Shown in pieces: positions 3,931 to 15,658 of a DNA stretch of 64,000 nucleotides. The first letter of the stretch is position 1; each line of letters starts with the position of its first letter. Origin of the DNA: Candidatus Poribacteria bacterium (GTDB lineage: Bacteria; Poribacteria; WGA-4E; PCPOR2b); NCBI GenBank assembly GCA_965208325.1, contig OZ242326.1, positions 704,001 through 768,000 on the forward strand, written 5' to 3'. The notes under the pieces were generated by a model. That model saw only the letters and a program-made list of their open reading frames with translations. It had not been told where the DNA came from and did no database searches. A program made the position numbers and the translations under genes.

Positions 3931-4674
3931 ATGACACCTACACCTGTCCTAGTGTCTTGGTCATCAGGTAAAGACTCCGCATGGGCGCTCTACACGCTGC
4001 GCAATCAGCCAGAACGTTATGACGTCCGCGGAATATTTACTACGATAACTAGAACATTTGATAGGGTTTCAATTCATTCTACACCATCGTGGATTTTAGA
4101 GCAGCAAGCCCAGAGATTGGACCTACCGCTGTACGAGATTCCTATCCCGTATCCCTGCTCTAACTCACAGTATGAGTCCGCAATGAGAGCGTTCCTTAAT
4201 CAAATTCAGGAACTGCCCGCGGATATCGCCGCGTCACATCTTGCATTTGGAGACCTCTTCCTAGAGGACATTCGGAAGTATCGCGAGGATAAACTGCGCG
4301 GGACGGGCTTCACACCGATTTTCCCTGTATGGGGGCAAGACACCACGCTACTTGCTCGAAGGATGATTGAGTCGAGAATGCGGGCGATTGTTACTGCGCT
4401 TAATCCAACCATGATACCAGCAGAGTTCGCCGGCAGATGGTTCGATTCCAACTTTCTAGCGGACTTACCGGAGGAAGTAGACCCGCTTGGCGAGAACGGA
4501 GAGTTTCATACGTGTGTCGTTGATGGTCCGATGTTCAGCAGCGCTATTCCAGCCAAACCCGGAAGAATTGTAGAGCGAAAAATTGCCGCCGCGTCAAATG
4601 AAGGTGATGACCTTGACAACGCCGGCAATGACTCTCCGGCGTACGTCTACGCTGACGTAATTCCATTGACCTAA
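3931..4674 (+). CDS. PP-loop ATP pyrophosphatase, diphthine-ammonia ligase (Dph6/DUF71)-like
   Basis: SWSSGKDS PP-loop, FGDLFLED..YRE and DPLGENGEFHT.V.DGP motifs. Confidence 0.85.
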   Translation: MTPTPVLVSWSSGKDSAWALYTLRNQPERYDVRGIFTTITRTFDRVSIHSTPSWILEQQAQRLDLPLYEIPIPYPCSNSQYESAMRAFLNQIQELPADIAASHLAFGDLFLEDIRKYREDKLRGTGFTPIFPVWGQDTTLLARRMIESRMRAIVTALNPTMIPAEFAGRWFDSNFLADLPEEVDPLGENGEFHTCVVDGPMFSSAIPAKPGRIVERKIAAASNEGDDLDNAGNDSPAYVYADVIPLT

Positions 4675-4825
4675 TGCTTTCCTACCAAATTCCGCAACAA
4701 GCTGTTGCTCCAAGCCGCCATTGTCTGATCTGAAACTTAGGAAGGCAACACGTATCGTATGAACCTCCGTTGGTTTTGTCCACGGATTGCCGCGTATTGG
4801 TAACGAAGAACATTCCCTCGCGATA

Positions 4826-6706
4826 TTAGTTTTGTGGGGGGATTACGGTCGACAATGTCTCGATGAGTTCGTCTAGGTACACGTGCCGAAAGAACTCTGA
4901 AAGCCGCTTCTGTCTCGGTTTCATCGGGAGCAATAAAAAATCGGAACGGCTAACTTGGATGGTTTCAAATACCATGCGGTAGGCGTGACTTGTGGCGTAG
5001 CCAACAACCAGCGCATAATAGTCGGCATATTTATCGAGATAGGCGTTGAACCTATCGGCGCCCAACTGGATTTGCGCGATGTTTCTGGGAGACAACTGGA
5101 AATCGTAGCGCACGACGGGTTCTTCAGTTTCAAATTCTTCAGGTACTGGCCCGTAAAGCCCCGAAAGCGTAACCTTGTGAATCTCCTGTTGATTCTCTCC
5201 AAAAGCCGCTTGAAGCCTAGTGTTGATGATAGCGTGTGTACGAGACAGCGAATACGGCTTTTTCCCCGCACAGGGTATTGACAAAAGAACCTTCGTGTCC
5301 CTAGGGGGTACATAACTATCTGGAATGACAAAGGAATCTGGTGTGTAATTCAGCGAGAGGCTCCTCGCTTCTTGGCTCGTAGTCTGGAAGAGTTCCAGTT
5401 GATTGGGGTTCCTCTTACCGGCGCGCCGGTTTTCTGAGGTAGGGGCTGCCGCAATCGTTCTCGCCATTCGGCTGGCAAAAGATTCATCGTTCGCCATCAA
5501 CCAGTCGATAGCCGCACGTATGCCGCGGCCAGATGAGGCATGCCGGCATATTTCTTCCAGCGCATCATCGGCTTCAATCGCACGTTTCATGCGTGACAGC
5601 AACTCTGTTTCCAACTCGAGATTGTGCAAGGCGATCGCCGCATAATATTCGCTCTTATATTTTCCGGTCGAGGTCCGTTTATAGCTTGCCGCTTCCATTA
5701 AGGCGCCCTGCATCTCATCAAGCGAAACCTCGCTGCATATTCGGCACGTACAAGTTAGCTCATCCAACTCCATTAGTTTTCGCTTTGCTCGGGTCAATGG
5801 ATCCGCATAGTTGAGGCCGCGCGCCGACTGAATGTAGCTTGTGCTGTCAAAGCTATCAATTCCCATGTATGCCAGGATAGGCGCGAGTTCGCCTGAGACC
5901 CCGAATGCGTGGATGGGCGTATGCGGGCGTGCTGAATCCGGAATTGCCCTTTGAACCCCGCAGATTCGTTCGAGCACCTCCGAATCCTGCTTCCCGCGCA
6001 GCGGCACTAAGGAGCCGATCGCAAGCCCGAATGCGGGCAGCACGCCCGTAAGACGGTCAAAAACCCTTTTGACATAATCTTCAATATCCGACTGAGACTG
6101 CCCATGGCAGCATACGTATAAAAAGGGCGGTTGCGCTTTGGTTGAGAGCAAAGTTCCTACGCGGCAGGCGTTCTCCAAACTGAGGCTCATCCGTTTTTCG
6201 GCTTCCGAGCGTTCTAACCCCGGCGGTAACGGATAATCTAAGGAAGCGAAGATTTCTCCGCCAACGTCCTCTTGGAGCGCAAGAATATCATCGGCTTCGG
6301 TCTCTTTTTCAATACCAAATTCCGTCAGGTCCAACCCCGCGTTGTAAAGCAGCTTAAATCCGCCGGAGTCGAGAAACAGCGGGGCATTGTAGGCACCGTT
6401 TACCTCTTGGTACCATTCACGAATGGATTTATTTCGCCACTTCGCTAAGATTTTGCCATTGATGGGAAAGTCTAGAAAGTGGAGGACTTGTGATAACATC
6501 GGCGTGTCGCGCTTCATTAAATCACGGAGCAGATATTTCCATAGTCCGCCGCCGCGCGGAGTAGAGCCGGTCATAAATGAAACCACCGGATACAAAATCG
6601 GTGTTGACAGTGGTGATAAAACTTCGCCATTCCGTAGCAATTGAAGTTCGCCAATTCTGCCGTTTTTTCTTTGAACAATCGTATGGTAGGTTGGGGTTGC
6701 GGTCAT
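4826..6706 (-). CDS. tRNA-guanine transglycosylase (archaeal-like) fused to an ArcS/DUF5591-like C-terminal domain
   Basis: FLDSGGF, SLDYP, AIGSLVP, PIHAFG, GIDSFDSTSY and Zn site CTCRIC...ALHNL; C-terminal PCAGKKPYSLSRTH and SGLYGPVP.E.E. Confidence 0.85.
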   Translation of the reverse strand: MTATPTYHTIVQRKNGRIGELQLLRNGEVLSPLSTPILYPVVSFMTGSTPRGGGLWKYLLRDLMKRDTPMLSQVLHFLDFPINGKILAKWRNKSIREWYQEVNGAYNAPLFLDSGGFKLLYNAGLDLTEFGIEKETEADDILALQEDVGGEIFASLDYPLPPGLERSEAEKRMSLSLENACRVGTLLSTKAQPPFLYVCCHGQSQSDIEDYVKRVFDRLTGVLPAFGLAIGSLVPLRGKQDSEVLERICGVQRAIPDSARPHTPIHAFGVSGELAPILAYMGIDSFDSTSYIQSARGLNYADPLTRAKRKLMELDELTCTCRICSEVSLDEMQGALMEAASYKRTSTGKYKSEYYAAIALHNLELETELLSRMKRAIEADDALEEICRHASSGRGIRAAIDWLMANDESFASRMARTIAAAPTSENRRAGKRNPNQLELFQTTSQEARSLSLNYTPDSFVIPDSYVPPRDTKVLLSIPCAGKKPYSLSRTHAIINTRLQAAFGENQQEIHKVTLSGLYGPVPEEFETEEPVVRYDFQLSPRNIAQIQLGADRFNAYLDKYADYYALVVGYATSHAYRMVFETIQVSRSDFLLLPMKPRQKRLSEFFRHVYLDELIETLSTVIPPQN

Positions 6707-6938
6707 AGTAGGACGTTTTTATAACAGTGCATTAAAGGGTAAGGACGCAACGGAATTGGACGGTAATTTTTTACACTGGCGAATCACAAGGTAAACACGC
6801 GGTTAGGTGCGTTTTTCATATGGAGAATTTAAAATCACTTGCGCAATTTAGCGTCGGCGAACTTGCGGGATGCGCACAAGTAAAGACAACGGTCATGTTG
6901 CGGGGCGATGGGCGTCGTTAAGATGGCACGCTCGCCCT

Positions 6939-7748
6939 CTATCGTCTCACTGACTGCGTTGGACTCAGGAACGGGGTTTTGAGCATGCCCCAAACTGTCT
7001 GCCATTGAAATTCATCGAATTCAGATAGCCCTAGTTCAATGCTCCTCGGCTGCTCTTTCAATCGAACCGTTCTTGCGACTCGATCCCAGACTGAAAAGAT
7101 GCTCGAATAGTTAGAGTCGGTTTCCGGCTGAAATCGGGAGTGATGCACGCGGTGCATATTGGGAGAGACGAGTAACGCTCGAAGGCAGCGATCGTATTTT
7201 TCAGGCAAGTTAACGTTGCTATGATGGAATTGTATCACCGGGAGAAGAATCAGCTCATACAGGATGACTTGCCACAAGTCTAGTCCTATCAAAGGGATGA
7301 CCCCAAGCCTCAAGATTGACGAGATTACCAGTTCGCCGGTGTGAAAACGCGTGGCGGTCGTCACATCCATGTTGGGGTCGCTGTGATGCATTCGATGGAA
7401 ACGCCAAAGGAATGGAATAGCATGATTGGCGCGGTGCCACAAATACATCCAGCTGTCAAACACTAGAATGGCAATTAACGTCTCTGCCCAGATTGGCAAA
7501 TTCAAAGCGTGCAACAATCCGATGCCGCGTTCATGGCTCCAGCCAGCAACCATGGCGGTCAAGCCGGAAAAGGCAAATCCGATAATCGCCGTGTTTATTA
7601 TGGCAATCGACAGGTTGCGTCCAGCGTGCCGAACCCGATGTCGGCGTTCCCGGAACAGCGGCAGCCAAGTTTCTACACACCAAAGAATCAGTAAAACAGC
7701 GATTCCCAATAGCGTCTTGGTCCCGCTAAGCGTTGCTGCGAAATCCAT
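6939..7748 (-). CDS. Sterol desaturase / fatty-acid hydroxylase family membrane di-iron enzyme
   Basis: His boxes WHRANH, FHRMHH, FHHSN, HRVHH and NYSSIFSVWDR. Confidence 0.9.
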   Translation of the reverse strand: MDFAATLSGTKTLLGIAVLLILWCVETWLPLFRERRHRVRHAGRNLSIAIINTAIIGFAFSGLTAMVAGWSHERGIGLLHALNLPIWAETLIAILVFDSWMYLWHRANHAIPFLWRFHRMHHSDPNMDVTTATRFHTGELVISSILRLGVIPLIGLDLWQVILYELILLPVIQFHHSNVNLPEKYDRCLRALLVSPNMHRVHHSRFQPETDSNYSSIFSVWDRVARTVRLKEQPRSIELGLSEFDEFQWQTVWGMLKTPFLSPTQSVRR

Positions 7749-7859: not shown

Positions 7860-9086
7860 TCACTCTCCAATCACAACGCCGTATTGGGCGACAACTGCGC
7901 CTCTGTGAATGCCTTGATAATGCAAGTGCCGCTCACCAACGATTGACTGCGTGCTCTGGACTTCGACGGTACCGATCACATCTCCCATGGCGTTTTCGTC
8001 AACATCCCAGCAGCAGAAGGGTTTAATGGTGTTGTGTAGTTGCCTGAGTATATTTGCATGCCTGTCACGAATCACGATGTTTACCATTGCATCTGCCTCA
8101 TCAACGTTCAAGAACCGAAACCAGTCGTGCGACCCGGTGTGGATTTCGGGGAAAAAGAGGTGCCGCCCAACATGGCCTCCCTCCGCAGATGCACCCGGGA
8201 GATCGACTATACTTGTCCCGCTGTGCATATGGCGTTCCGCTGCAATGGACTCGTCGCTCCGAGCTTCAAGGGAAGATTTTATTTTGATTGCATCCATATC
8301 AGGCGTCCAGCATTCAAATGAGCCAAGAGTCTGTTCGTCCGACCATACAGGGTTACCCGTGCCATCCTCTCTTGCTATGAGCGTAACTTTTGCTTCTTCC
8401 TGCCCAACATTCACAACAATTGCCCAATCGTTCCATGCGGGCCCAACTTCAGGGAAGTAAAGTGTGGTTGGACCGTCTGAAATAACCTGCCCGAATTGCC
8501 CCACGGACGTCTGTCCACCCTGATAGTGCAGATGCCGTTCGCCAACAATGAGTTGCGTACTCTGCACTTCGACAGTTCCAACCACATTTCCCATGGCCTC
8601 CTCCGCGAGATCCCAAGTACAAAGCGGTGGTATCTGCCGATGGTGCTGTCTAATAACGTCCCCATTTCTGTTCCGAATTACCATGTTCACCAACGCTTCT
8701 GCTTCCCCAACATTCAAAAATCGGAACCAGTCCCGTGCGCCGGACACCAGTTCTGGGAAAAAAAGACGTAAACCGACAGTTTCATATTCGACCGCTGCAC
8801 CCACAAAATCCATAACATTGGAGCCGCCGTGCATATGCCGCTCTGCAACAATCGGCTGGTCAGCCGTGAGTTGCATGGAGGAATTCTCTCCAATTGCTTC
8901 AACGTTCGGTGTCCAGCATTCAAATGCATCAACCTCCTTCTCCTCGGACCAGGTAGGCTGACCGTTTGCCGGATTCCTCGCGATCGCCAATACTTTAGTG
9001 GGTTCAGTTCCGACATTGACGACCTGTACCCAATCCACCCATGCGGGCCCGAGTTCAGGAAAATAGAGTGTTGTTGCTCCTGGCAT
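7860..9086 (-). CDS. Hypothetical protein with an internal tandem duplication (4 related beta-rich repeats)
   Basis: GGAG upstream of ATG. Halves begin TTLYFPELGPAW and TTLYFPEVGPAW; four segments end in ERH(M/L)H. Confidence 0.8.
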   Translation of the reverse strand: MPGATTLYFPELGPAWVDWVQVVNVGTEPTKVLAIARNPANGQPTWSEEKEVDAFECWTPNVEAIGENSSMQLTADQPIVAERHMHGGSNVMDFVGAAVEYETVGLRLFFPELVSGARDWFRFLNVGEAEALVNMVIRNRNGDVIRQHHRQIPPLCTWDLAEEAMGNVVGTVEVQSTQLIVGERHLHYQGGQTSVGQFGQVISDGPTTLYFPEVGPAWNDWAIVVNVGQEEAKVTLIAREDGTGNPVWSDEQTLGSFECWTPDMDAIKIKSSLEARSDESIAAERHMHSGTSIVDLPGASAEGGHVGRHLFFPEIHTGSHDWFRFLNVDEADAMVNIVIRDRHANILRQLHNTIKPFCCWDVDENAMGDVIGTVEVQSTQSIVGERHLHYQGIHRGAVVAQYGVVIGE

Positions 9087-9161
9087 CGTTACATCTCCTA
9101 AAAATTAGATACACATATTACCAATGTCTCGGCGTAGAACATAGTCAGCTAAATTTATCTC

Positions 9162-10124
9162 CTATCGAATTGCGATGGGATTGCCCGGCGACCCCGTCGC
9201 GCCCTTGAGTCTCAGCGGGGAAAAAACAAAAGCGAATTCGTACACTTTGTCTCGCACCAAGTCTTCAGTAATCAGGTTTTCAAGGTTGTAGATGCCGTTT
9301 TTGGGTAAAAACAGTTGGTGCACCGGAAACGACATGGATTTATCGGGATTAGGAACCACTTCAATTGCCCAAGTATCGGCGCCCGCCATCACAATTTTCT
9401 GATCGACCAAATATTCGCCTGCTTCCATGCCTATACCGGGTTCGGTTGTACCGTAGCGTTCGTTATCCGTCATCCAATACTTCCCCCAGCCGGTATGGAA
9501 TAGAACGAAATCGCCCGGTTTGATTTCGGTGCCTTGACGCTCTAACGCGCCTTTCAAATCCGCCAGCGTGATTTCATAGCCGCCTTCCAAATGTTCGACG
9601 CCCTTGTAGCTTGCGATATCAATCAGAACACCCCGTGTGAAGAAGACGCCAACGTTTTCTACACCGAGCTTAATCAATCCCCCGGGTTTTGCGAAGTCGT
9701 GTCGATTAAACCCGTTGTAGTAGAGATCTCCGATACCGACGTGTCCCAATCCATCGAATTGCGTGCCAACCTGACCAATCTGGCCGCTGAAGATTTCGTC
9801 GTGTGACGTGAGCTGATTCTCGCCAGATGGGTCCGTAGTGTGCGGAATCATGAGACTGTAGTGGCGTGTACCAACGAGCGGCATGCCAGCTTCGTAGACC
9901 CTTCCAAGCTGATAAATTTTCCCCTCTTTGATTAAACTAACAGCCTCCAACACCTTTGCGGGGGTTATGCGGTTTGCCGCACCGCGCTGATCGTCAGGAC
10001 CCCATTCCGATGGGTACCATTTTGATTCTTGGGTAATTGTCCAGGTTGTCGTCAAAGCCATCAATAATATCACCGTACCGGTGAGAACTACACGTTTGAT
10101 TCGCTGTGTATGCCTGCTTGTCAT
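9162..10124 (-). CDS. Cyclase family (kynurenine formamidase-like) metal-dependent hydrolase with N-terminal signal/TM segment
   Basis: WGPDDQRG, GTQFDGLGH, HTGW, VHQ..L...GIYNLENL and GATGSP motifs. Confidence 0.85.
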   Translation of the reverse strand: MTSRHTQRIKRVVLTGTVILLMALTTTWTITQESKWYPSEWGPDDQRGAANRITPAKVLEAVSLIKEGKIYQLGRVYEAGMPLVGTRHYSLMIPHTTDPSGENQLTSHDEIFSGQIGQVGTQFDGLGHVGIGDLYYNGFNRHDFAKPGGLIKLGVENVGVFFTRGVLIDIASYKGVEHLEGGYEITLADLKGALERQGTEIKPGDFVLFHTGWGKYWMTDNERYGTTEPGIGMEAGEYLVDQKIVMAGADTWAIEVVPNPDKSMSFPVHQLFLPKNGIYNLENLITEDLVRDKVYEFAFVFSPLRLKGATGSPGNPIAIR

Positions 10125-10310
10125 TAATTTCTCCTTGCGATTGCCAACGTTTATGCGCTATAGCCTAACCACGTTAGAATGGATAATAACAAAAGGTGAC
10201 GACTTGAAAGCGCTGCCTTTCCCTACTTGAAACAAAGTTTAGCAGAATCAATAAGCTAATTCAAGAGAATTCATTGACACAGTACCACCTCAAGGCAGTA
10301 AATTAAAGGC

Positions 10311-10339
10311 TTGACGACCGCTTTTTTTCTCTGTATTAT
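10311..10339 (+). promoter_or_regulatory. sigma70-type promoter upstream of tatD
   Basis: TTGACG-17 bp-TATTAT, about 95 bp before the tatD ATG. Confidence 0.55.
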
Positions 10340-10433
10340 CTTCCTGTGGAAAGACCGAAGTATTGCCAGGTTAGATGGTTCGGATGCTGAAAGAATTTTC
10401 ATAGCGCCTTATGGGAAGGTAAAGAATATTTGC

Positions 10434-11213
10434 ATGCTCGTTGACTCACATGCTCACATTCAACTCGATGCGTTCGCCGCGGACCGAGAGGAGGTATTGG
10501 AAAACGCACAAGAAGATGGAGTTCACTCAATCCTCACGATTGGATTCGATGTGGAGACCAGCCGCGGCGCAATCAAACTTGCCGAACAATATGAGCAAAT
10601 CTTTGCGGCTGTCGGCATGCATCCGCACGATGCGAAAGTATTCAATGACGAAACGAGCAAAATATTTCTCAGCCTCGCCGACCACCCGAAAGTAATCGCG
10701 CTTGGTGAAATGGGGCTCGACTACTACCGAGATCGCTCGCCGCGTTCGATTCAGAAAATAGCGTTCGAGCAGCAATTAGATCTTGCAGAAGATAAAAACC
10801 TACCCGTCGTCATTCACAATCGAGAAGCCTACCACGACATCATCCCAATTTTGCAAGCGAGGCGCGGGCGTATCCGCGGCGTGATGCACTGCTTTTCCGG
10901 AGTAGTCGAAACCATGCGGCAGAGTCTTGATCTCGAATTTTACATCGGACTCGGGGGACCCGTGACGTATCGAAAATCTCATGAGTTGCAGGAGGTAGCA
11001 CGCGAGGTACCAGCTGACCGCCTTCTTGTGGAAACGGACTGTCCGTGGCTTGCGCCCCAATTTCGGCGCGGCAAACGCAATGAACCAGCCTATGTCCGAG
11101 CGATAGCAGCAAGGATTGCCGAACTTCGCGGCGTAACGTTGGAAGACATTGGGGCAACAACGACACGCAACTTTGAGACTCTGTTTGGTAGAAGCGTACA
11201 GGCCGGCACATGA
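10434..11213 (+). CDS. tatD: TatD-family DNase/hydrolase
   Basis: MLVDSHAH, GMHPHD, GEMGLDYY, IHNREA, MHCFSG, ETDCPWLAP and RNEP motifs. Start moved from 10311 to ATG 10434. Confidence 0.93.
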   Translation: MLVDSHAHIQLDAFAADREEVLENAQEDGVHSILTIGFDVETSRGAIKLAEQYEQIFAAVGMHPHDAKVFNDETSKIFLSLADHPKVIALGEMGLDYYRDRSPRSIQKIAFEQQLDLAEDKNLPVVIHNREAYHDIIPILQARRGRIRGVMHCFSGVVETMRQSLDLEFYIGLGGPVTYRKSHELQEVAREVPADRLLVETDCPWLAPQFRRGKRNEPAYVRAIAARIAELRGVTLEDIGATTTRNFETLFGRSVQAGT

Positions 11214-12334
11214 TGAACAGGCTCAATTTTCGCACCTACGCAATGGTAATTGCACTCACCTGTATTTGGGCGATTTTCACCGCATTAACCGACGGTACAT
11301 TCCTCACGAACCGAAACCTTTCGAACCTTTCCCGGCAGGCGTCGGTGACTGCTATTTTAGCTGTCGGAATGGTGTTCATCATTGTTTCAGCAAATATCGA
11401 TCTCTCAGTCGGCTATGGCTCCGGACTGCTTGGGGCAATTGCCGTAATCATACATGTCTGGTGGGAACAAAACCCGATAGTTGCAATCCTTGCAACTATC
11501 GCACTAGGGATACTGATTGGCGCAGTGCAGGGATATTTCGTAGCGTATCAGCGTGTGCCCGCTTTTATTGTCACACTTGGGGGTTTTATGGTCTGCCGCG
11601 GCCTGATGTTGGCAGCCACAAGAGGCGAAACTATCCTACTCCCAAACAATTGGTTCAAAGCGATAGGAAATGCCTACCTGCCAAAATCAATCGGTTGGGG
11701 GTTAGCAATTACCGCGCTGATTTCGGGCGCATATGCCTTCTATCGCCAGCGGAAAGCCCGTGTAAGTTACGGGTTGGCGGTGCCTTCGACCACAATTTTT
11801 GTTGTGAAAATTGTCGGAACATCGACGACAATTATCGGATTTGCCGCCGTCATGAACAGCCATGAAGGAATCGCGGTGCCGGTTTGCATTTTGTTCATGT
11901 TAGTCTTCTTCTTTCACTTCATTGCAGACCACACTCGTTTTGGGCGGTATGTTTACGCTATTGGCGGCAATTCGGAAGCCGCTTATCTCTCCGGGATCAA
12001 CGTCCGAAACGTCACGCTGCGCGTCTTTGCAATCATGGGTGCACTCATGGCGGTCGCCGGGGTTGTGCTTGCTGCGCGTGTCGGCAGCGCAAGCCCCGAA
12101 GCAGGTCGGTTACTTGAGTTAGATGCTATCGCAGCTTGTGTTATCGGCGGCGCAAGTTTAATGGGCGGGCGCGGCAGCATTCCGGGCGCGGTATTAGGAG
12201 CGCTCGTAATGGAAAGCCTTAATAACGGCATGAGCATGGCAAACATGGATGCCTCATGGCAAGATATAATTAAGGGGGTCGTATTAGTAGCAGCTGTTTG
12301 GTTTGACATTATGTCACGGCGGCGCGGCAGGTGA
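11210..12334 (+). CDS. Sugar ABC transporter permease (XylH/GguB-like)
   Basis: IDLSVG, VPAFIVTLGG, TRFGRYVYAIGGN.EAA.LSGI and ELDAIAACVIGG motifs. Confidence 0.9.
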   Translation: MMNRLNFRTYAMVIALTCIWAIFTALTDGTFLTNRNLSNLSRQASVTAILAVGMVFIIVSANIDLSVGYGSGLLGAIAVIIHVWWEQNPIVAILATIALGILIGAVQGYFVAYQRVPAFIVTLGGFMVCRGLMLAATRGETILLPNNWFKAIGNAYLPKSIGWGLAITALISGAYAFYRQRKARVSYGLAVPSTTIFVVKIVGTSTTIIGFAAVMNSHEGIAVPVCILFMLVFFFHFIADHTRFGRYVYAIGGNSEAAYLSGINVRNVTLRVFAIMGALMAVAGVVLAARVGSASPEAGRLLELDAIAACVIGGASLMGGRGSIPGAVLGALVMESLNNGMSMANMDASWQDIIKGVVLVAAVWFDIMSRRRGR

Positions 12335-12380
12335 GGACACAAAAATTAACTCTTACAGAAACTGAAAATTGGAGGAGGTT

Positions 12381-12722
12381 ATGACGGTGAATTGGATGTA
12401 CTTTAGAAATAGCTGAACATCTTGCCGTAAAGCGCAAGAGTTTCTTGACGCAAATGATTTTCAAGTAGATAGCCGAACCGATGCGCGTAAGGTGAAGCTG
12501 AATCCAACGGAAGTTTGGGAGCGTATCAAAACTGCCCAATCCATCCACGTTGCACGGGGCAAGGAGGTCAATGTTTTCAATCCGGATGTCGGCTTGCGAG
12601 ATGACATTCTCAAAGCGGTAATGGGACGAAGTGGAAATTTGCGTGCACCCACACTGCAAATCGGGGAGTCGTTTTTCGTTGGATTTAATGCGAAACTGTA
12701 CGATGCTATACTAATGTTATGA
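12381..12722 (+). CDS. ArsC/Spx-like thioredoxin-fold selenoprotein (UxxC), 113 aa with in-frame UGA
   Basis: RBS GGAGGAGG 12371-12378, ATG 12381; MTVNWMYFRNS-U-TSCRKAQEFL with TGA at 12414-12416, in frame with track ORF 12492..12722 (GRSGNLRAPTL, VGFN). A hairpin follows the UGA. Confidence 0.8.
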
Positions 12723-12802
12723 ACGCTGTGTGATACAGTCACACTGGCAAAGCTACCGGCAAAACCCTATTCACTGAACGAGTGTATGAGAAGTTTAACA
12801 GA

Positions 12803-15658
12803 TTATCGCCGTTTCCAAATCTCCACATTTCCAAGCTGAATATCTTTGATATAATGTATTTGAAGATAAGCAGCGACTAATGGAAGCACGGCGGAAATCC
12901 GCTCTCTGTATATCACTATTTTTGGCTTCGACGCCTCCAAGTCCGCAATCACCTCTTTCTGCAGCGGCTCCGGTTTAGCATAGGCGATTTGAGGGAACCT
13001 TGTTGGATTAGGTCTGTTCGCAAGGAAATAATTCATGCCTTGGTTAGCAAAATCGAAGATTGGGTCAGAAGACTCGGTGTTTTCTTGGATATAATTGACC
13101 ACCTGTTCAATCTGCGCCGCCTCGTTCACTGGTGTCAAAACCCGCCCTGCCCGCTTTAAGCGTACCTCGGCATATCCCCCTGGGATTCTTCCGTAATTCG
13201 TAAAATTAACTAGCATCGTTTCAGCCTGCTTCAACGGTTTGGCTGCGAATACCCCGTACAGATCTGTCCTGATATACCAAAGCAAGCCCACCACAAACAT
13301 CATAGAACAAATTAACAGCGGTAGATTAATTCGGGACATTTGCACGCTGCGGACCGTAGGCGGCGACGCATCACGACATTCACCATGCTCTACCGTCATT
13401 TTAGCATCGTTGGTTGTATCGGCTCTTGTCAGTTCTTCACTCGTTTTTACCTGGTGTGTATTCTCCGAAGATCCACGCAACCTAAACGCCAGCCACATTC
13501 CTTCAAAGAAAAAGAAGCAGATTAACCAGATAAAAGAAGAGCTAAATAATACATGGTGCCAGTCTGAACGACCTAAAGCTGTTCTGAAATAAATGATACC
13601 CGCCAACAGAATTATAAGCAACTTCCAATCCTCCACTTTCCATTGATTTGCAACTGCGCGAAACATCAGAAAGGTTAAAGTCATCAAGTAAACGAGGATG
13701 GGGAAATACCACATAAATGTCTTGCTTAAAATAAAGTCCGATAATGTGACGAGAGAGGTAATCTTTGATAGTTCTGCCAACAGCGGGATAAAGGGCGTTC
13801 CCCAAATTTCCGTGTGATACGTGAATTGAATCCATGAGCTTTTAACCGCATCATCTATCGCACCGTGGACGCCAAAAAAGATAATGAACGGGGCAAATCC
13901 TATTATGACCCCTAACTTATACGTTAGAAGCGGCGACAAACACTTGCCCAATGCACCATCCCTCACCTGCTGTACTTTGTCTTTTGAAGAACTAGGATTC
14001 GCCGCGGCTCCACCATTATTGACCGATCTGCAGAAAATGGAGGCGAAACCGAATACAAATAGGAACACGCTAGAGGCTGCCCAAGTATACAAACCGGTGT
14101 CAAGACTATAGAACACTGCCAATGTTGTACAAACTCCTGCCGCTGCGAGAATCGATTTTCCATGTCCGGGACTTCTTTGAGTCCATTTGCATAGCAGCAT
14201 CAGAGTGAGAAACCCCAGAATATGCCGATCTGTCACCGGAAGGTACGCTCGCGGTGCTGCCAATCCAAACGTCAGCAAAATTAAAGCCAAAGAAACAAAG
14301 AGAGCCGTAGCTCTTCTTCGAAAACACTGCAACGCGAGAAGATAAAAACAGACATATCCCAGTGGATACACAATATGGTGCAGTTTTCTATCCGCCTCTA
14401 GCGTTTCTCCAAAGAGTTTCATGGCGAGCCAGGGTTTGTATGCGTTTTGAACAAGCCCGTGCTGTAGGTAGACATCTCGATAAGGAATGCCCCCTCGCAG
14501 CAGTTCGTTTACTACTGCCGCACGTTCGCCTTCGTGATAAAGGTCAATACCGCCCATGGCGTTCGCACCGGTATAAGCATGGCTCAGACTGGCATTGCTA
14601 TTATACATAAAGGCGTAAATGAGAGCGGACATCATGATAATGTTCAGAATAGACACTCTCCGTTGCAAAGCCATGTGGTAAGGCCGGCTGGCGGGGATTT
14701 GCTGCTTAACAATTCTTCGGGATGAACGGAGGTTTAGCAGGGTAGAAATTTTCAAAGCGGCAATTGCTATGACAGTGACAATTGCCAAGATTGCCGCTGC
14801 ATGCTTCACCCTGAAAAACACCGTGAGAAACAACAGCAGGATGGACGGAAAATAAGTGACAGAATCATTTCGGAGTATATCAGCGAAACTATAAGGTGTT
14901 AATGTTCTCAGCAGTATCGAATATCCAACCCAGAATCCCCAGGTTCCCAGCACAATAACAAAGAGCATTTGCCAACACGCTATTGCTGCGACCTCTTTCG
15001 GACTTCCAATAATCAGAAGAAAAACGGTCAGGCAAACCCCGCAGGCAATCGGTATTCCATGGAATGGCATTGTCTCCCTAGCCCAAAGAATTTCTCCAAT
15101 TTTTGGCTCTCCTTCCAAACGCGTCTCGCCCTCGCGCGTTTCCAGTTTTTCACGCCGACGCCTTTTCGAGACCATCAGGTGGAATGAAAAAAACAACACT
15201 TGGGCAATTATGAACAGGCTCGCCGGCGTCCCGAATTCTCCAGCAAATTTGCCAGGAAGGTGTACTCGCTCCAACACTAACAAGAAAAGTAGATACGTGA
15301 GCGCATTTTCCCGCAAGATGCGCTCATTGGCGTTGTTAGTCAATTTAGCGCAAACCGCCGAGAACGTCACCCATAATCCGCAACTCATCAGGACATAAAC
15401 CGGCACGAACGCGAGTGCGGCTAAATAATTTACAATCTCCTGACGCTCGGCTACAGTACGTTTGGCAAGTTGATCTGACCCAAATTCAGTAAAAAAATGG
15501 AGGTGTTCCTTGACATTAAAACCCAATGCCAAAGCGAAAATAAAGCTGCTTCCGGAAACTATCACCGCAAAGGCTTGGTTTCTATGTTGCCGCGCGAGGT
15601 TGAAGGTGTCGCGAATAGCGTTACGCATAGCAAGATGCTCCAATCGAAGAAAGTCCAA
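12803..15658 (-). CDS. Large polytopic membrane protein, probable GT-C-type glycosyltransferase
   Basis: About 20 hydrophobic segments; GGIPYRDVYLQHG loop and C-terminal YFLANRPNPTRF domain typical of membrane glycosyltransferase-like proteins. Confidence 0.55.
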   Translation of the reverse strand: MDFLRLEHLAMRNAIRDTFNLARQHRNQAFAVIVSGSSFIFALALGFNVKEHLHFFTEFGSDQLAKRTVAERQEIVNYLAALAFVPVYVLMSCGLWVTFSAVCAKLTNNANERILRENALTYLLFLLVLERVHLPGKFAGEFGTPASLFIIAQVLFFSFHLMVSKRRRREKLETREGETRLEGEPKIGEILWARETMPFHGIPIACGVCLTVFLLIIGSPKEVAAIACWQMLFVIVLGTWGFWVGYSILLRTLTPYSFADILRNDSVTYFPSILLLFLTVFFRVKHAAAILAIVTVIAIAALKISTLLNLRSSRRIVKQQIPASRPYHMALQRRVSILNIIMMSALIYAFMYNSNASLSHAYTGANAMGGIDLYHEGERAAVVNELLRGGIPYRDVYLQHGLVQNAYKPWLAMKLFGETLEADRKLHHIVYPLGYVCFYLLALQCFRRRATALFVSLALILLTFGLAAPRAYLPVTDRHILGFLTLMLLCKWTQRSPGHGKSILAAAGVCTTLAVFYSLDTGLYTWAASSVFLFVFGFASIFCRSVNNGGAAANPSSSKDKVQQVRDGALGKCLSPLLTYKLGVIIGFAPFIIFFGVHGAIDDAVKSSWIQFTYHTEIWGTPFIPLLAELSKITSLVTLSDFILSKTFMWYFPILVYLMTLTFLMFRAVANQWKVEDWKLLIILLAGIIYFRTALGRSDWHHVLFSSSFIWLICFFFFEGMWLAFRLRGSSENTHQVKTSEELTRADTTNDAKMTVEHGECRDASPPTVRSVQMSRINLPLLICSMMFVVGLLWYIRTDLYGVFAAKPLKQAETMLVNFTNYGRIPGGYAEVRLKRAGRVLTPVNEAAQIEQVVNYIQENTESSDPIFDFANQGMNYFLANRPNPTRFPQIAYAKPEPLQKEVIADLEASKPKIVIYRERISAVLPLVAAYLQIHYIKDIQLGNVEIWKRR

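Follow-up and report, generated by a model that had tools for sequence, protein, structure and literature searches.

The subject of this analysis is one gene in a 64,000-nucleotide stretch of Candidatus Poribacteria DNA (contig OZ242326.1, positions 704,001 to 768,000 of the forward strand; this whole stretch is called the window). At window positions 4826-6706, on the minus strand, a single open reading frame (ORF) encodes 626 amino acids followed by a stop codon. In Pfam, the translated protein matched the tRNA-guanine transglycosylase family TGT (PF01702) over residues 106-384, with 52 bits against a curated cut-off of 26.3, and DUF5591 (PF17884) over residues 463-583, with 50.4 bits against a curated cut-off of 26. 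These two were the only matches at E<=0.01; PUA and TGT_C2 were absent at that threshold, and PF21818 (DUF6884) did not match the protein in Pfam. An earlier reading of the letters of the window (the original prediction) had described an archaeal-type TGT fused to a domain of about 160 amino acids with the signature of archaeosine synthase (ArcS), and had seen no PUA domain. The lack of PUA agrees with the Pfam result, and the ORF and motif coordinates place the TGT barrel motifs, the zinc site, and PCAGKKPYSLSRTH (nt 5234-5275) where that reading had them, each quoted motif occurring once in the protein. The ArcS-type domain is present as well, but the model gives it 182 residues (445-626); it forms the C-terminal end of the modelled protein. 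The features are listed below in window coordinates.

4826-6706, minus strand: whole gene, TGT plus DUF5591 (ArcS-C1-like), stop codon at 4826-4828 (ORF list, Pfam, AlphaFold2 model).
5444-6706, minus strand: TGT catalytic domain at the N-terminus, residues 1-421, with its zinc subdomain and a helical extension (Pfam, Foldseek, PDB profile search).
6584-6691, minus strand: N-terminal beta-sheet lid, residues 6-41, with model strands 6-13, 16-22, 33-35, and 37-41; aligns to residues 9-41 of archaeal TGT (arcTGT).
6356-6376, minus strand: FLDSGGF, residues 111-117, with the first catalytic Asp, D113, which aligns to arcTGT D95 (1iq8).
6230-6241, minus strand: LDYP, residues 156-159 (D157 and P159 invariant in 28 sequences); we take D157 to be the substrate-base recognition Asp of TGTs.
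6002-6019, minus strand: IGSLVP pocket loop, residues 230-235; L233 and V234 align to arcTGT V197 and V198 (IGGVVPL in 1iq8).
5900-5911, minus strand: HAFG, residues 266-269 (motif search; H266 and G269 invariant in 28 sequences).
5834-5863, minus strand: GIDSFDSTSY, residues 282-291, with the second catalytic Asp, D287, which aligns to arcTGT D249; G282 and D287 invariant.
5624-5752, minus strand: zinc site C319, C321, C324...H361, aligned with CxCxxC...H of 1iq8; CTCRIC is residues 319-324, nt 5735-5752.
5375-5443, minus strand: disordered interdomain linker, residues 422-444 (pLDDT <50; variable in length and poorly conserved in the alignment).
4829-5374, minus strand: C-terminal ArcS-C1/DUF5591 domain, residues 445-626 (Pfam, separate domain model, fold match to 2q07).
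5234-5275, minus strand: PCAGKKPYSLSRTH, the ArcS signature PCx3KPYx2Sx2H, residues 478-491, with putative catalytic C479 and K483 (invariant in 27/27 C-domains).
5141-5167, minus strand: LSGLYGPVP, second conserved motif of the C-domain, which matches LSAxxG of DUF6884/DpdC; S515, G516, Y518, G519, P520, V521, and P522 invariant.
6721-6852, no strand: 132-bp stretch at the site of a 1,541-bp methylase-bearing segment in L009, the closest relative (blastn of the window against L009-L011).

The protein belongs to a family in which both active sites are conserved. An exhaustive search of representative proteins returned 649 proteins at E<=1e-3, 102 of them at E<=1e-30, and a word-indexed search returned 427 matches; the best 120 of these 427 all carried both domains at a length of 563-663 amino acids, and three of the 120 bear the JGI name '7-cyano-7-deazaguanine tRNA-ribosyltransferase'. 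Twelve of 12 longer representatives (649-880 amino acids) showed only TGT and/or DUF5591, with no C2 or PUA domain, and no longer fused form was found at E<=1e-10 among proteins of 1097-3130 amino acids, which is weak evidence. In an alignment of 28 diverse full-length members, 30-61% identical to the query, residues D113, S114, G116, D157, P159, H266, G269, D287, C321, C324, H361, P484, and Y485 were invariant, and C319, G231, S232, and V234 were conserved in at least 90%. The pattern P-C-x3-K-P-Y-S-x-S-x2-H, which contains the published ArcS motif PCx3KPYx2Sx2H (as defined in PMC10516641 and PMC5699537), and SG-YGPVP were invariant in all 27 genome-derived C-domains, drawn from four phyla. 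Because the catalytic residues do not vary across the 28 members and the 27 C-domains, the motif match is not due to chance.

A profile search of the PDB returned arcTGT (1iq8) first (E 1.4e-32, 116 bits) and AF0587 (2q07) second, covering the C-domain (E 3.9e-13). Bacterial and eukaryotic TGTs followed at about 1e-11 and below, with about 38-47 bits, and the DpdA structure 7ui4 at E 0.0046. The AlphaFold2 model of the full protein had a mean pLDDT of 90.8 and a pTM of 0.89, and its top Foldseek matches were the arcTGT structures 1iq8 and 1j2b (E about 1e-19). As the whole model retrieved TGT matches only, the C-domain was folded on its own (pLDDT 89.6). The sole Foldseek match of this separate model at E<=0.001 was 2q07 (E 1.5e-6), and a scan of 48,161 chains independent of Foldseek gave 2q07 a Z of 15.0 (root-mean-square deviation 2.4 A over 137 residues), the next chain reaching 8.4. 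By its model, the C-domain is a true ArcS-C1 fold, as the original prediction had anticipated.

Models of the known families place the protein inside the TGT superfamily and outside each of its named branches. The general superfamily model TIGR00449 was passed (56.6 bits against a cut-off of 47.6), whereas the equivalog cut-offs of TgtA (TIGR00432; 86.6 bits against 350) and ArcS (NF040592; 84.6 bits against 440) were not reached. The DpdA model NF041059 gave 21.3 bits against 200, the PADLOC DpdA model 20.8 bits, and the NCBIfam model for bacterial Tgt 19.1 bits against 307. We calculated a maximum likelihood tree of 46 TGT domains: 26 from the family, four from haloarchaeal TGT-only proteins, seven arcTGT, three bacterial Tgt, one divergent Thermogemmatispora TGT, and five DpdA. 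The N-domains of ArcS were omitted since about half of the barrel is absent from them. With support given as ultrafast bootstrap/SH-aLRT, the TGT-DUF5591 family formed one group (92/89), sister to the haloarchaeal TGT-only proteins of 412-420 amino acids (93/93), and its bacterial members formed one clade (100/99). The family fell outside arcTGT (100/98), bacterial Tgt (97/93), and DpdA (100/100, on a very long branch), in a tree whose seven arcTGT all come from Halobacteriota and in which long branches join close to the base. The sequence comparisons agree that the N-domain is archaeal-type and not bacterial-type, as originally predicted: TgtA scores 86.6 bits against 19.1 for Tgt, 1iq8 is the top structural match, and the tree places the domain accordingly.

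The family is not the oddity of a single organism; it occurs in Poribacteria, Cyanobacteria, Chloroflexota, and haloarchaea. One genome per species was scanned, which gave 102 relatives, and the best 80 of these 102 were used as loci (numbered with an L): 53 from Poribacteria, 11 cyanobacterial, nine from Chloroflexota, and seven haloarchaeal. The 53 comprise 51 loci so titled and two from an 'uncultured bacterium' that were grouped with them by 62-65% identity. In two haloarchaeal genomes (G002 and G003), a family member coexists with arcTGT and canonical ArcS. Because of this coexistence, and that with a canonical tgt in the window genome, we regard the family as a separate paralogue that replaces neither type of TGT. 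A phage origin was considered and rejected: tblastn found no match to the family in 50,697 phage records, and the viral contigs of IMG/VR gave only four weak matches, all to the TGT domain only.

The original prediction held that ArcS is normally a separate protein. This part has to be corrected, as canonical ArcS is described as a TGT-like N-domain followed by C1 (DUF5591), C2, and PUA, and phage ArcS2 as C1 alone (PMC10516641, PMC5699537). Because the TGT-like N-domain is already part of canonical ArcS, TGT plus DUF5591 follows the layout of ArcS and is no novel fusion in itself; what stands of the predicted fusion is that a complete TGT barrel is joined to an ArcS-type site. In the haloarchaeal ArcS protein L089, Pfam detected TGT over positions 188-354 only, together with DUF5591 (209 bits), TGT_C2, and PUA. 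All ten Halobacteriota ArcS compared (10/10) had no match at positions ~60-230 of the family profile, the part that holds FLDSGGF and LDYP, whereas arcTGT and family members matched throughout. The DUF5591 scores differ as well, at 50-81 bits in the family and 116-218 bits in canonical ArcS. Besides canonical ArcS, about 40 of the listed DUF5591 matches in Halobacteriota were standalone proteins of 220-255 amino acids (55-77 bits).

The state of the barrel bears on whether the TGT half is an enzyme at all. In canonical ArcS, the TGT-like N-domain is described as being without transglycosylase activity (PMC10516641, PMC5699537), and ArcS of T. kodakarensis accepts the preQ0 nucleoside and its 5'-monophosphate (PMC11298593). 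By analogy, the C-domain alone could be catalytic in the TGT-DUF5591 protein, with the TGT half serving only to dock a substrate whose preQ0 another enzyme had placed, or to bind free preQ0. However, the catalytic Asp pair, the substrate Asp, and the zinc site do not vary at about 30% identity across four phyla; that half of the barrel is missing from the Halobacteriota ArcS examined but present in the family; and no other preQ0-inserting enzyme is evident, as canonical bacterial TGT uses preQ1 (PMC6884629). We consider it unlikely that the TGT half only docks the substrate. The pocket loop is also of the archaeal kind, since its L233 and V234 align to V197 and V198 of arcTGT, which are said to set specificity for preQ0 rather than preQ1 (PMC5699537).

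The C-domain further resembles DUF6884, the Pfam family of DpdC (GATOR-GC preprint), for which CxxxK and LSAxxG motifs are described (PMC11701544). In the Dpd system, DpdA and DpdB insert preQ0 into DNA and DpdC converts it to dADG (PMC10164549). An hhalign comparison of the C-domain with six DUF6884 domains gave a probability of 71% and an E of 3.8e-5, with C479 and K483 in register with CxxxK, and with S515 and G519 in register with the S and G of LSAxxG. From this alignment we judge the sequence link between the C-domain and DUF6884/DpdC to be of moderate strength. A link to the YaaA ('cantaloupe') fold was tried and rejected, because YaaA was not in the top 50 VIA fold matches; for the same reason, the connection to DpdC comes from hhalign only. 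DpdA itself was present in 5/201 genomes of the cyanobacterial phylum, and the three scanned (3/3) were DUF6884(DpdC)-TGT(DpdA) fusions of 711-805 amino acids (L113:607-2754; L114:1402-3537, minus strand; L115:1414-3831, minus strand; 461-489 bits on NF041059). In view of these fusions, a nitrile-modifying domain and a DNA transglycosylase have been joined independently.

To count partner genes, ORFs were called around the 80 loci and clustered, the representatives were annotated with Pfam and PADLOC, and BLAST was then used within +-8 kb. DpdD-K are the restriction part of the Dpd system, and this neighborhood survey, which had been proposed along with the original prediction, found Dpd-type partners in other phyla. 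An SF2 helicase of the DpdJ/YprA type was present within this distance of the family gene in 2/11 cyanobacterial loci, in 5/9 of those from Chloroflexota, and in 6/7 of the haloarchaeal ones, against 0/53 in Poribacteria; for four of the helicases tested, the PADLOC DpdJ model gave 180-214 bits. Small PLD nucleases (PADLOC DpdK, 40 bits) were found in 3/7 haloarchaeal and 4/9 Chloroflexota loci, and in none of the 11 cyanobacterial or 53 Poribacteria loci. Genes for 7-deazaguanine synthesis were nearby in part of the loci, with QueC in 2/9 Chloroflexota and 3/7 haloarchaeal loci and a QueE-like radical SAM protein in 3/7 haloarchaeal loci. In L078, four genes lie tightly packed on one strand: TGT-DUF5591 (8001-9866), helicase (9989-13846), PLD nuclease (13830-14315), and deoxyribosyltransferase (14312-14719). 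In two bacterial genomes with such islands (G004 and G005), the sole TGT-superfamily genes are a bacterial-type tgt and the family member, G004 having an extra divergent copy; since the other TGT genes are bacterial-type, the family member is the only candidate modifier in these islands. The extra copy in G004 (Thermogemmatispora, L101:1462-2634) is a divergent bacterial-type TGT of 390 amino acids (PF01702, 301 bits) on a long branch.

Four of the seven haloarchaeal loci contain a set of DUF6884, TGT-only, and GHKL ATPase genes. In L082-L085 and L088 (e.g., L083:9944-13200), TGT-DUF5591 is directly followed by a standalone DUF6884 protein, a TGT-only protein of 416-420 amino acids, and a GHKL ATPase; the TGT-only neighbor belongs to the same clade (254 bits on the family profile). 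Because DUF6884 and TGT-only genes adjoin TGT-DUF5591, each of these haloarchaeal islands would hold two sets of transglycosylase and nitrile modifier. DUF262 (GmrSD_N; NsnA/PD-T4-2_A in PADLOC) and HEPN genes were found in 9/11 cyanobacterial loci and in none of the other groups. In L062-L069 and L077, the DUF262 gene (NsnA/PD-T4-2_A-like, 207 bits) and a HEPN gene of the MAE_28990/RiboL-PSP type form a pair after TGT-DUF5591, and in the Spirulina locus L065 a DpdJ-like helicase lies between TGT-DUF5591 and this pair, an arrangement that suggests loss of the helicase from other cyanobacterial lineages. On a Microcoleus contig (L069:16-2040), the TGT-DUF5591 frame continues into a helicase fragment. 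An apparent homology between the helicases (1300-1460 amino acids) and TGT was rejected as a single-linkage artefact that arose from this chimeric ORF and a contig-end fragment in L088.

The Chloroflexota loci are also where one could look for an enzyme of small molecules, acting on a nucleoside, nucleotide, or free-base pool (in salvage, on a pre-replicative precursor, or for a secondary metabolite) instead of on a polymer. A Vut_1 (YhhQ-type) transporter is nearby in 4/9 of these loci and a nucleoside 2-deoxyribosyltransferase in 2/9, and the action of ArcS on the 5'-monophosphate of the preQ0 nucleoside (PMC11298593) would fit. Against it, the TGT-superfamily transglycosylases characterized in PMC10516641, PMC10164549, and PMC5699537 act on polymers, no kinase or polymerase partner was seen in the neighborhoods, and the window genome is without the transporter and has as its best match to a deoxyribosyltransferase (NDT-like) a weak one of 38 bits. 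Such a small-molecule role strikes us as quite improbable.

The genome of the window contains QueC, a QueE-like radical SAM protein, QueD, QueF, QueA, and a canonical bacterial tgt (537 bits), which is its only other TGT; the gene studied is thus not the sole tgt of the genome. As QueD, the QueE-like protein, QueC, and the others are present, preQ0 is available in this genome as an intermediate of queuosine. Within the phylum, DUF5591 was found in 49/151 genomes, and its distribution by genus is patchy (16/20, 7/9, and 3/3 against 12/57 and 0/38); several Poribacteria genomes have two copies of the family. The NG86 ratio of nonsynonymous to synonymous substitution rates (dN/dS) was 0.134 against L009 and 0.09 against L010-L012, with dS saturating beyond these. 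The gene is under purifying selection, with dN/dS of 0.09-0.13, and is accessory in its distribution yet constrained.

These values also speak to the idea that the gene is a functionless leftover of a lost defense island. Partner genes are absent, flanking genes of restriction-modification type come and go in close relatives, and in L053, L060, and L080 two ORFs stand in place of one family gene, perhaps through a frameshift or decay. In the window, however, the frame is intact and all catalytic residues are kept, and the low dN/dS extends to the comparison with the closest relative. That the gene is such a remnant seems highly improbable.

Our preferred reading, in which we place moderate confidence, is that TGT-DUF5591 carries out two steps in one chain, first the insertion of preQ0 and then a change to its nitrile, with DNA a likelier target than tRNA. 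That both domains are catalytic, in which order they act, on which polymer, and with what product is inferred. The N-terminal arcTGT-like transglycosylase would swap a guanine in a nucleic-acid polymer for preQ0 supplied by the cell's own QueD, QueE, and QueC. The C-terminal ArcS-C1-type domain would then use its conserved Cys and Lys (C479/K483) to attack the nitrile of this preQ0, and the product may be an amidine (archaeosine-like or a lysine adduct) or an amide (ADG-like). In Poribacteria, where its restriction partners are missing, the enzyme would modify on its own, much as an orphan methylase does. DNA appears the more likely polymer because the C2 and PUA domains are absent and because relatives are operon partners of Dpd-type restriction genes. 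The accessory distribution and the DNA precedents for both activities also make DNA more likely.

A number of observations weigh against DNA, and many of them would suit an enzyme of tRNA or RNA: a compact bacterial hybrid of arcTGT and ArcS that inserts preQ0 at a tRNA guanine (e.g., G15) and turns it into an archaeosine-like base. With the family profile, the TGT domain is nearer to tRNA-acting arcTGT (94-119 bits) than to DpdA (25-29 bits), and the PDB profile and the fold point the same way. The AlphaFold2 model keeps the N-terminal beta lid of tRNA-type TGTs, which DpdA is described as lacking, and DpdA is described as requiring the DpdB ATPase for DNA (PMC10164549). In the window genome (95.6% complete), DndB/DpdB (PF14072) gave zero matches, and a DpdJ-like helicase, a DpdK-like PLD nuclease, DUF6884, Vut_1, and a HEPN partner were all absent from it. 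Neither the window nor the rest of the genome holds a locus that combines a YprA/DpdJ helicase, a PLD or PD-(D/E)xK nuclease, and 7-deazaguanine genes. Helicase, PLD, and DUF262/HEPN neighbors occur in 0/53 Poribacteria loci, so that the defense context lies wholly outside the phylum; the DpdJ-like helicase is present in 2/151 phylum genomes, neither of which has the family, and thus in 0/49 family-bearing genomes. In Poribacteria, TGT-DUF5591 is an orphan with no Dpd-type partners, and no ATPase partner accompanies it. The suggestion in the original prediction of a role on DNA, possibly in defense, is therefore borne out by context for relatives in other phyla, with their helicase and PLD islands, but not for the window genome.

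The radical-SAM partner that had also been envisaged did not turn up either: the best match in the window genome to TIGR01210, which we take to be RaSEA, had 21.9 bits against a cut-off of 212.15, and the same model exceeded its cut-off in three archaeal genomes that also hold DUF5591. As there is no RaSEA-type partner, this genome would lack the known means of turning a lysine adduct into G+. The stable position of the gene among housekeeping genes, its high prevalence in some Poribacteria genera (near-universal in some), and the strong purifying selection would fit a housekeeping RNA role as well. The PUA domain is reportedly dispensable for arcTGT activity, according to the title of a 2006 paper by Sabina and Soll. 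A DNA methylase that adjoins the gene in part of the Poribacteria loci is not counted as a functional link, because these loci fall in one subclade and the adjacency may be one inherited event.

Other observations are harder to square with tRNA, even though the RNase-type HEPN neighbors in cyanobacteria could point to RNA. The C2 and PUA domains, both of which arcTGT and ArcS are described as keeping for tRNA binding (PMC5699537), are absent, and PUA is treated as the tRNA-specific element of ArcS (PMC6884629). Enzymes of tRNA modification are not usually so patchy within genera (0/38 and 12/57), relatives share operons with helicase and nuclease genes, and the copies split into two ORFs suggest dispensability. 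Overall, we hold the tRNA or RNA enzyme to be possible but doubtful.

Within the preferred reading of a DNA modifier, we tentatively extend the argument to Poribacteria. The protein might be a partner-independent writer that places an archaeosine-type (amidine or lysyl-amidine) or amido 7-deazaguanine in the chromosome, an orphan mark with an epigenetic or protective role that outlasted the loss of a Dpd- or BRIGADE-like restriction module; the sequence is compatible with this, but we think it less than probable. As part of the same extension, and just as tentatively, the protein would be a DNA transglycosylase of cells that descends from arcTGT and works without a DpdB-type ATPase.

The original prediction noted that the gene stands alone amid housekeeping genes. 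This is correct for the window, but the three closest loci (L009-L011) have the same flanking genes and, in addition, an N6/N4 DNA methylase directly upstream of TGT-DUF5591 (Pfam N6_N4_Mtase at L009:6678-7832). Relative to L009, the window also lacks a downstream segment of ~1 kb with an uncharacterized 244-aa gene (blastn against L009-L011). A methylase remnant in the gap at 6651-7000 was looked for and rejected, as there was no match at E<=10. An N6/N4 methylase adjoins the gene in 15/53 Poribacteria loci, six of the 53 adding a MutH-like endonuclease, and at the methylase spot DUF6996/6997 or Uma2 genes are found in further close relatives; the gene borders a hot-spot for genes of restriction-modification type. 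In six of the 53 loci (L021, L022, L025, L028, L034, and L042, a second Poribacteria paralogue clade), TGT-DUF5591 is directly preceded by a QueD-like PTPS gene (PF01242), and this is the sole link to the preQ0 pathway in the phylum.

A promoter and terminator scan of 4600-7000 found four promoter-like sites against 2.2 expected, none of which precedes the start codon, and is uninformative. A diphthamide-synthase-like PP-loop ATPase (PF01902, 80 bits) is encoded at 3931-4674 on the plus strand, convergent with TGT-DUF5591; its best NCBIfam matches are the archaeal PAB0415/Dph6 families, far below cut-off; we rejected it as a partner because it is a neighbor only in the window and in L009. At 7860-9086, on the minus strand, a protein of 408 amino acids with no Pfam match consists of two duplicated halves of ~200 amino acids (for example, TTLYFPELGPAW and TTLYFPEVGPAW); its gene is kept beside a FA-hydroxylase gene in the closest relatives (cluster c48).

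The literature searched, in which reviews of 7-deazaguanines were not fully covered, held no description of the TGT-DUF5591 family. Judged by sequence, what is new is the combination of an intact transglycosylase site and an ArcS-type site in one chain that has no tRNA-binding domains and belongs to a clade distinct from arcTGT, ArcS, bTGT, and DpdA. Already known are the haloarchaeal islands that hold the family, which a preprint presents as predicted BRIGADE systems (bioRxiv 10.1101/2025.09.15.676423); the words TGT, ArcS, and transglycosylase are absent from the main text of that preprint. Known 7-deazaguanine systems split insertion (arcTGT, DpdA) and tailoring (ArcS, DpdC, ArcS2) between proteins. 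The family resembles a minimal, portable modification module and is perhaps similar to the form from which ArcS arose. Action on DNA would make it a fourth lineage of DNA-guanine transglycosylases and would explain the 'self' mark in the helicase/PLD islands of haloarchaea (BRIGADE), Chloroflexota, and cyanobacteria; it would also mean that a major phylum associated with sponges bears an orphan deazaguanine mark, which would matter for sequencing, restriction, and phage biology there. Action on tRNA would mean that Archaea are not alone in having archaeosine-type modification, which some Poribacteria would hold alongside queuosine.

Among known systems, the N-domain is closest to arcTGT of Pyrococcus horikoshii (1IQ8/1J2B), its best match, with which it shares the Asp pair, the zinc site, the lid, and the preQ0-type pocket loop. 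The family differs from arcTGT in its separate place in the tree, in its lack of the C2 and PUA domains, in the ArcS-type catalytic insertion of its C1 region, and in its occurrence in bacteria. ArcS (TgtA2) and AF0587 share the order of N-domain and C1, the perfect PCx3KPYx2Sx2H, and the 2q07 fold (Z 15.0). In contrast to the truncated barrel of Halobacteriota ArcS, the barrel of the window family is complete with its catalytic residues and is not followed by TGT_C2 or PUA; the window genome also differs in having no RaSEA-type partner.

The Dpd system likewise pairs a transglycosylase with a nitrile-modifying CxxxK domain, and relatives of the gene lie beside DpdJ-like helicases, DpdK-like PLD nucleases, and preQ0 genes. 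The family is nevertheless far from DpdA in the tree, keeps the lid, has the reverse domain order, and uses DUF5591 instead of DUF6884; the window genome is without DpdB/DndB and the restriction genes. Vibrio phage nt-1 offers a precedent for the chemistry, since its DpdA2 and ArcS2 are described as yielding dG+ in E. coli, an ArcS-C1-only domain there working with a DNA transglycosylase and no PUA (PMC10516641). In nt-1, however, these are two separate phage proteins, whereas the family is one polypeptide and was not found in the phage records searched. BRIGADE systems are predicted to resemble Dpd and to combine PLD nucleases and two YprA helicases with a 7-deazaguanine cluster; the preprint reports them 'exclusively in halophilic archaea' (bioRxiv 10.1101/2025.09.15.676423). 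The window genome has none, and the bacterial islands (Chloroflexota and one cyanobacterium) are simpler; the likeness is found in the haloarchaeal loci L081-L088, which have YprA/DpdJ-type helicases, a small PLD nuclease, and a 7-deazaguanine cluster.

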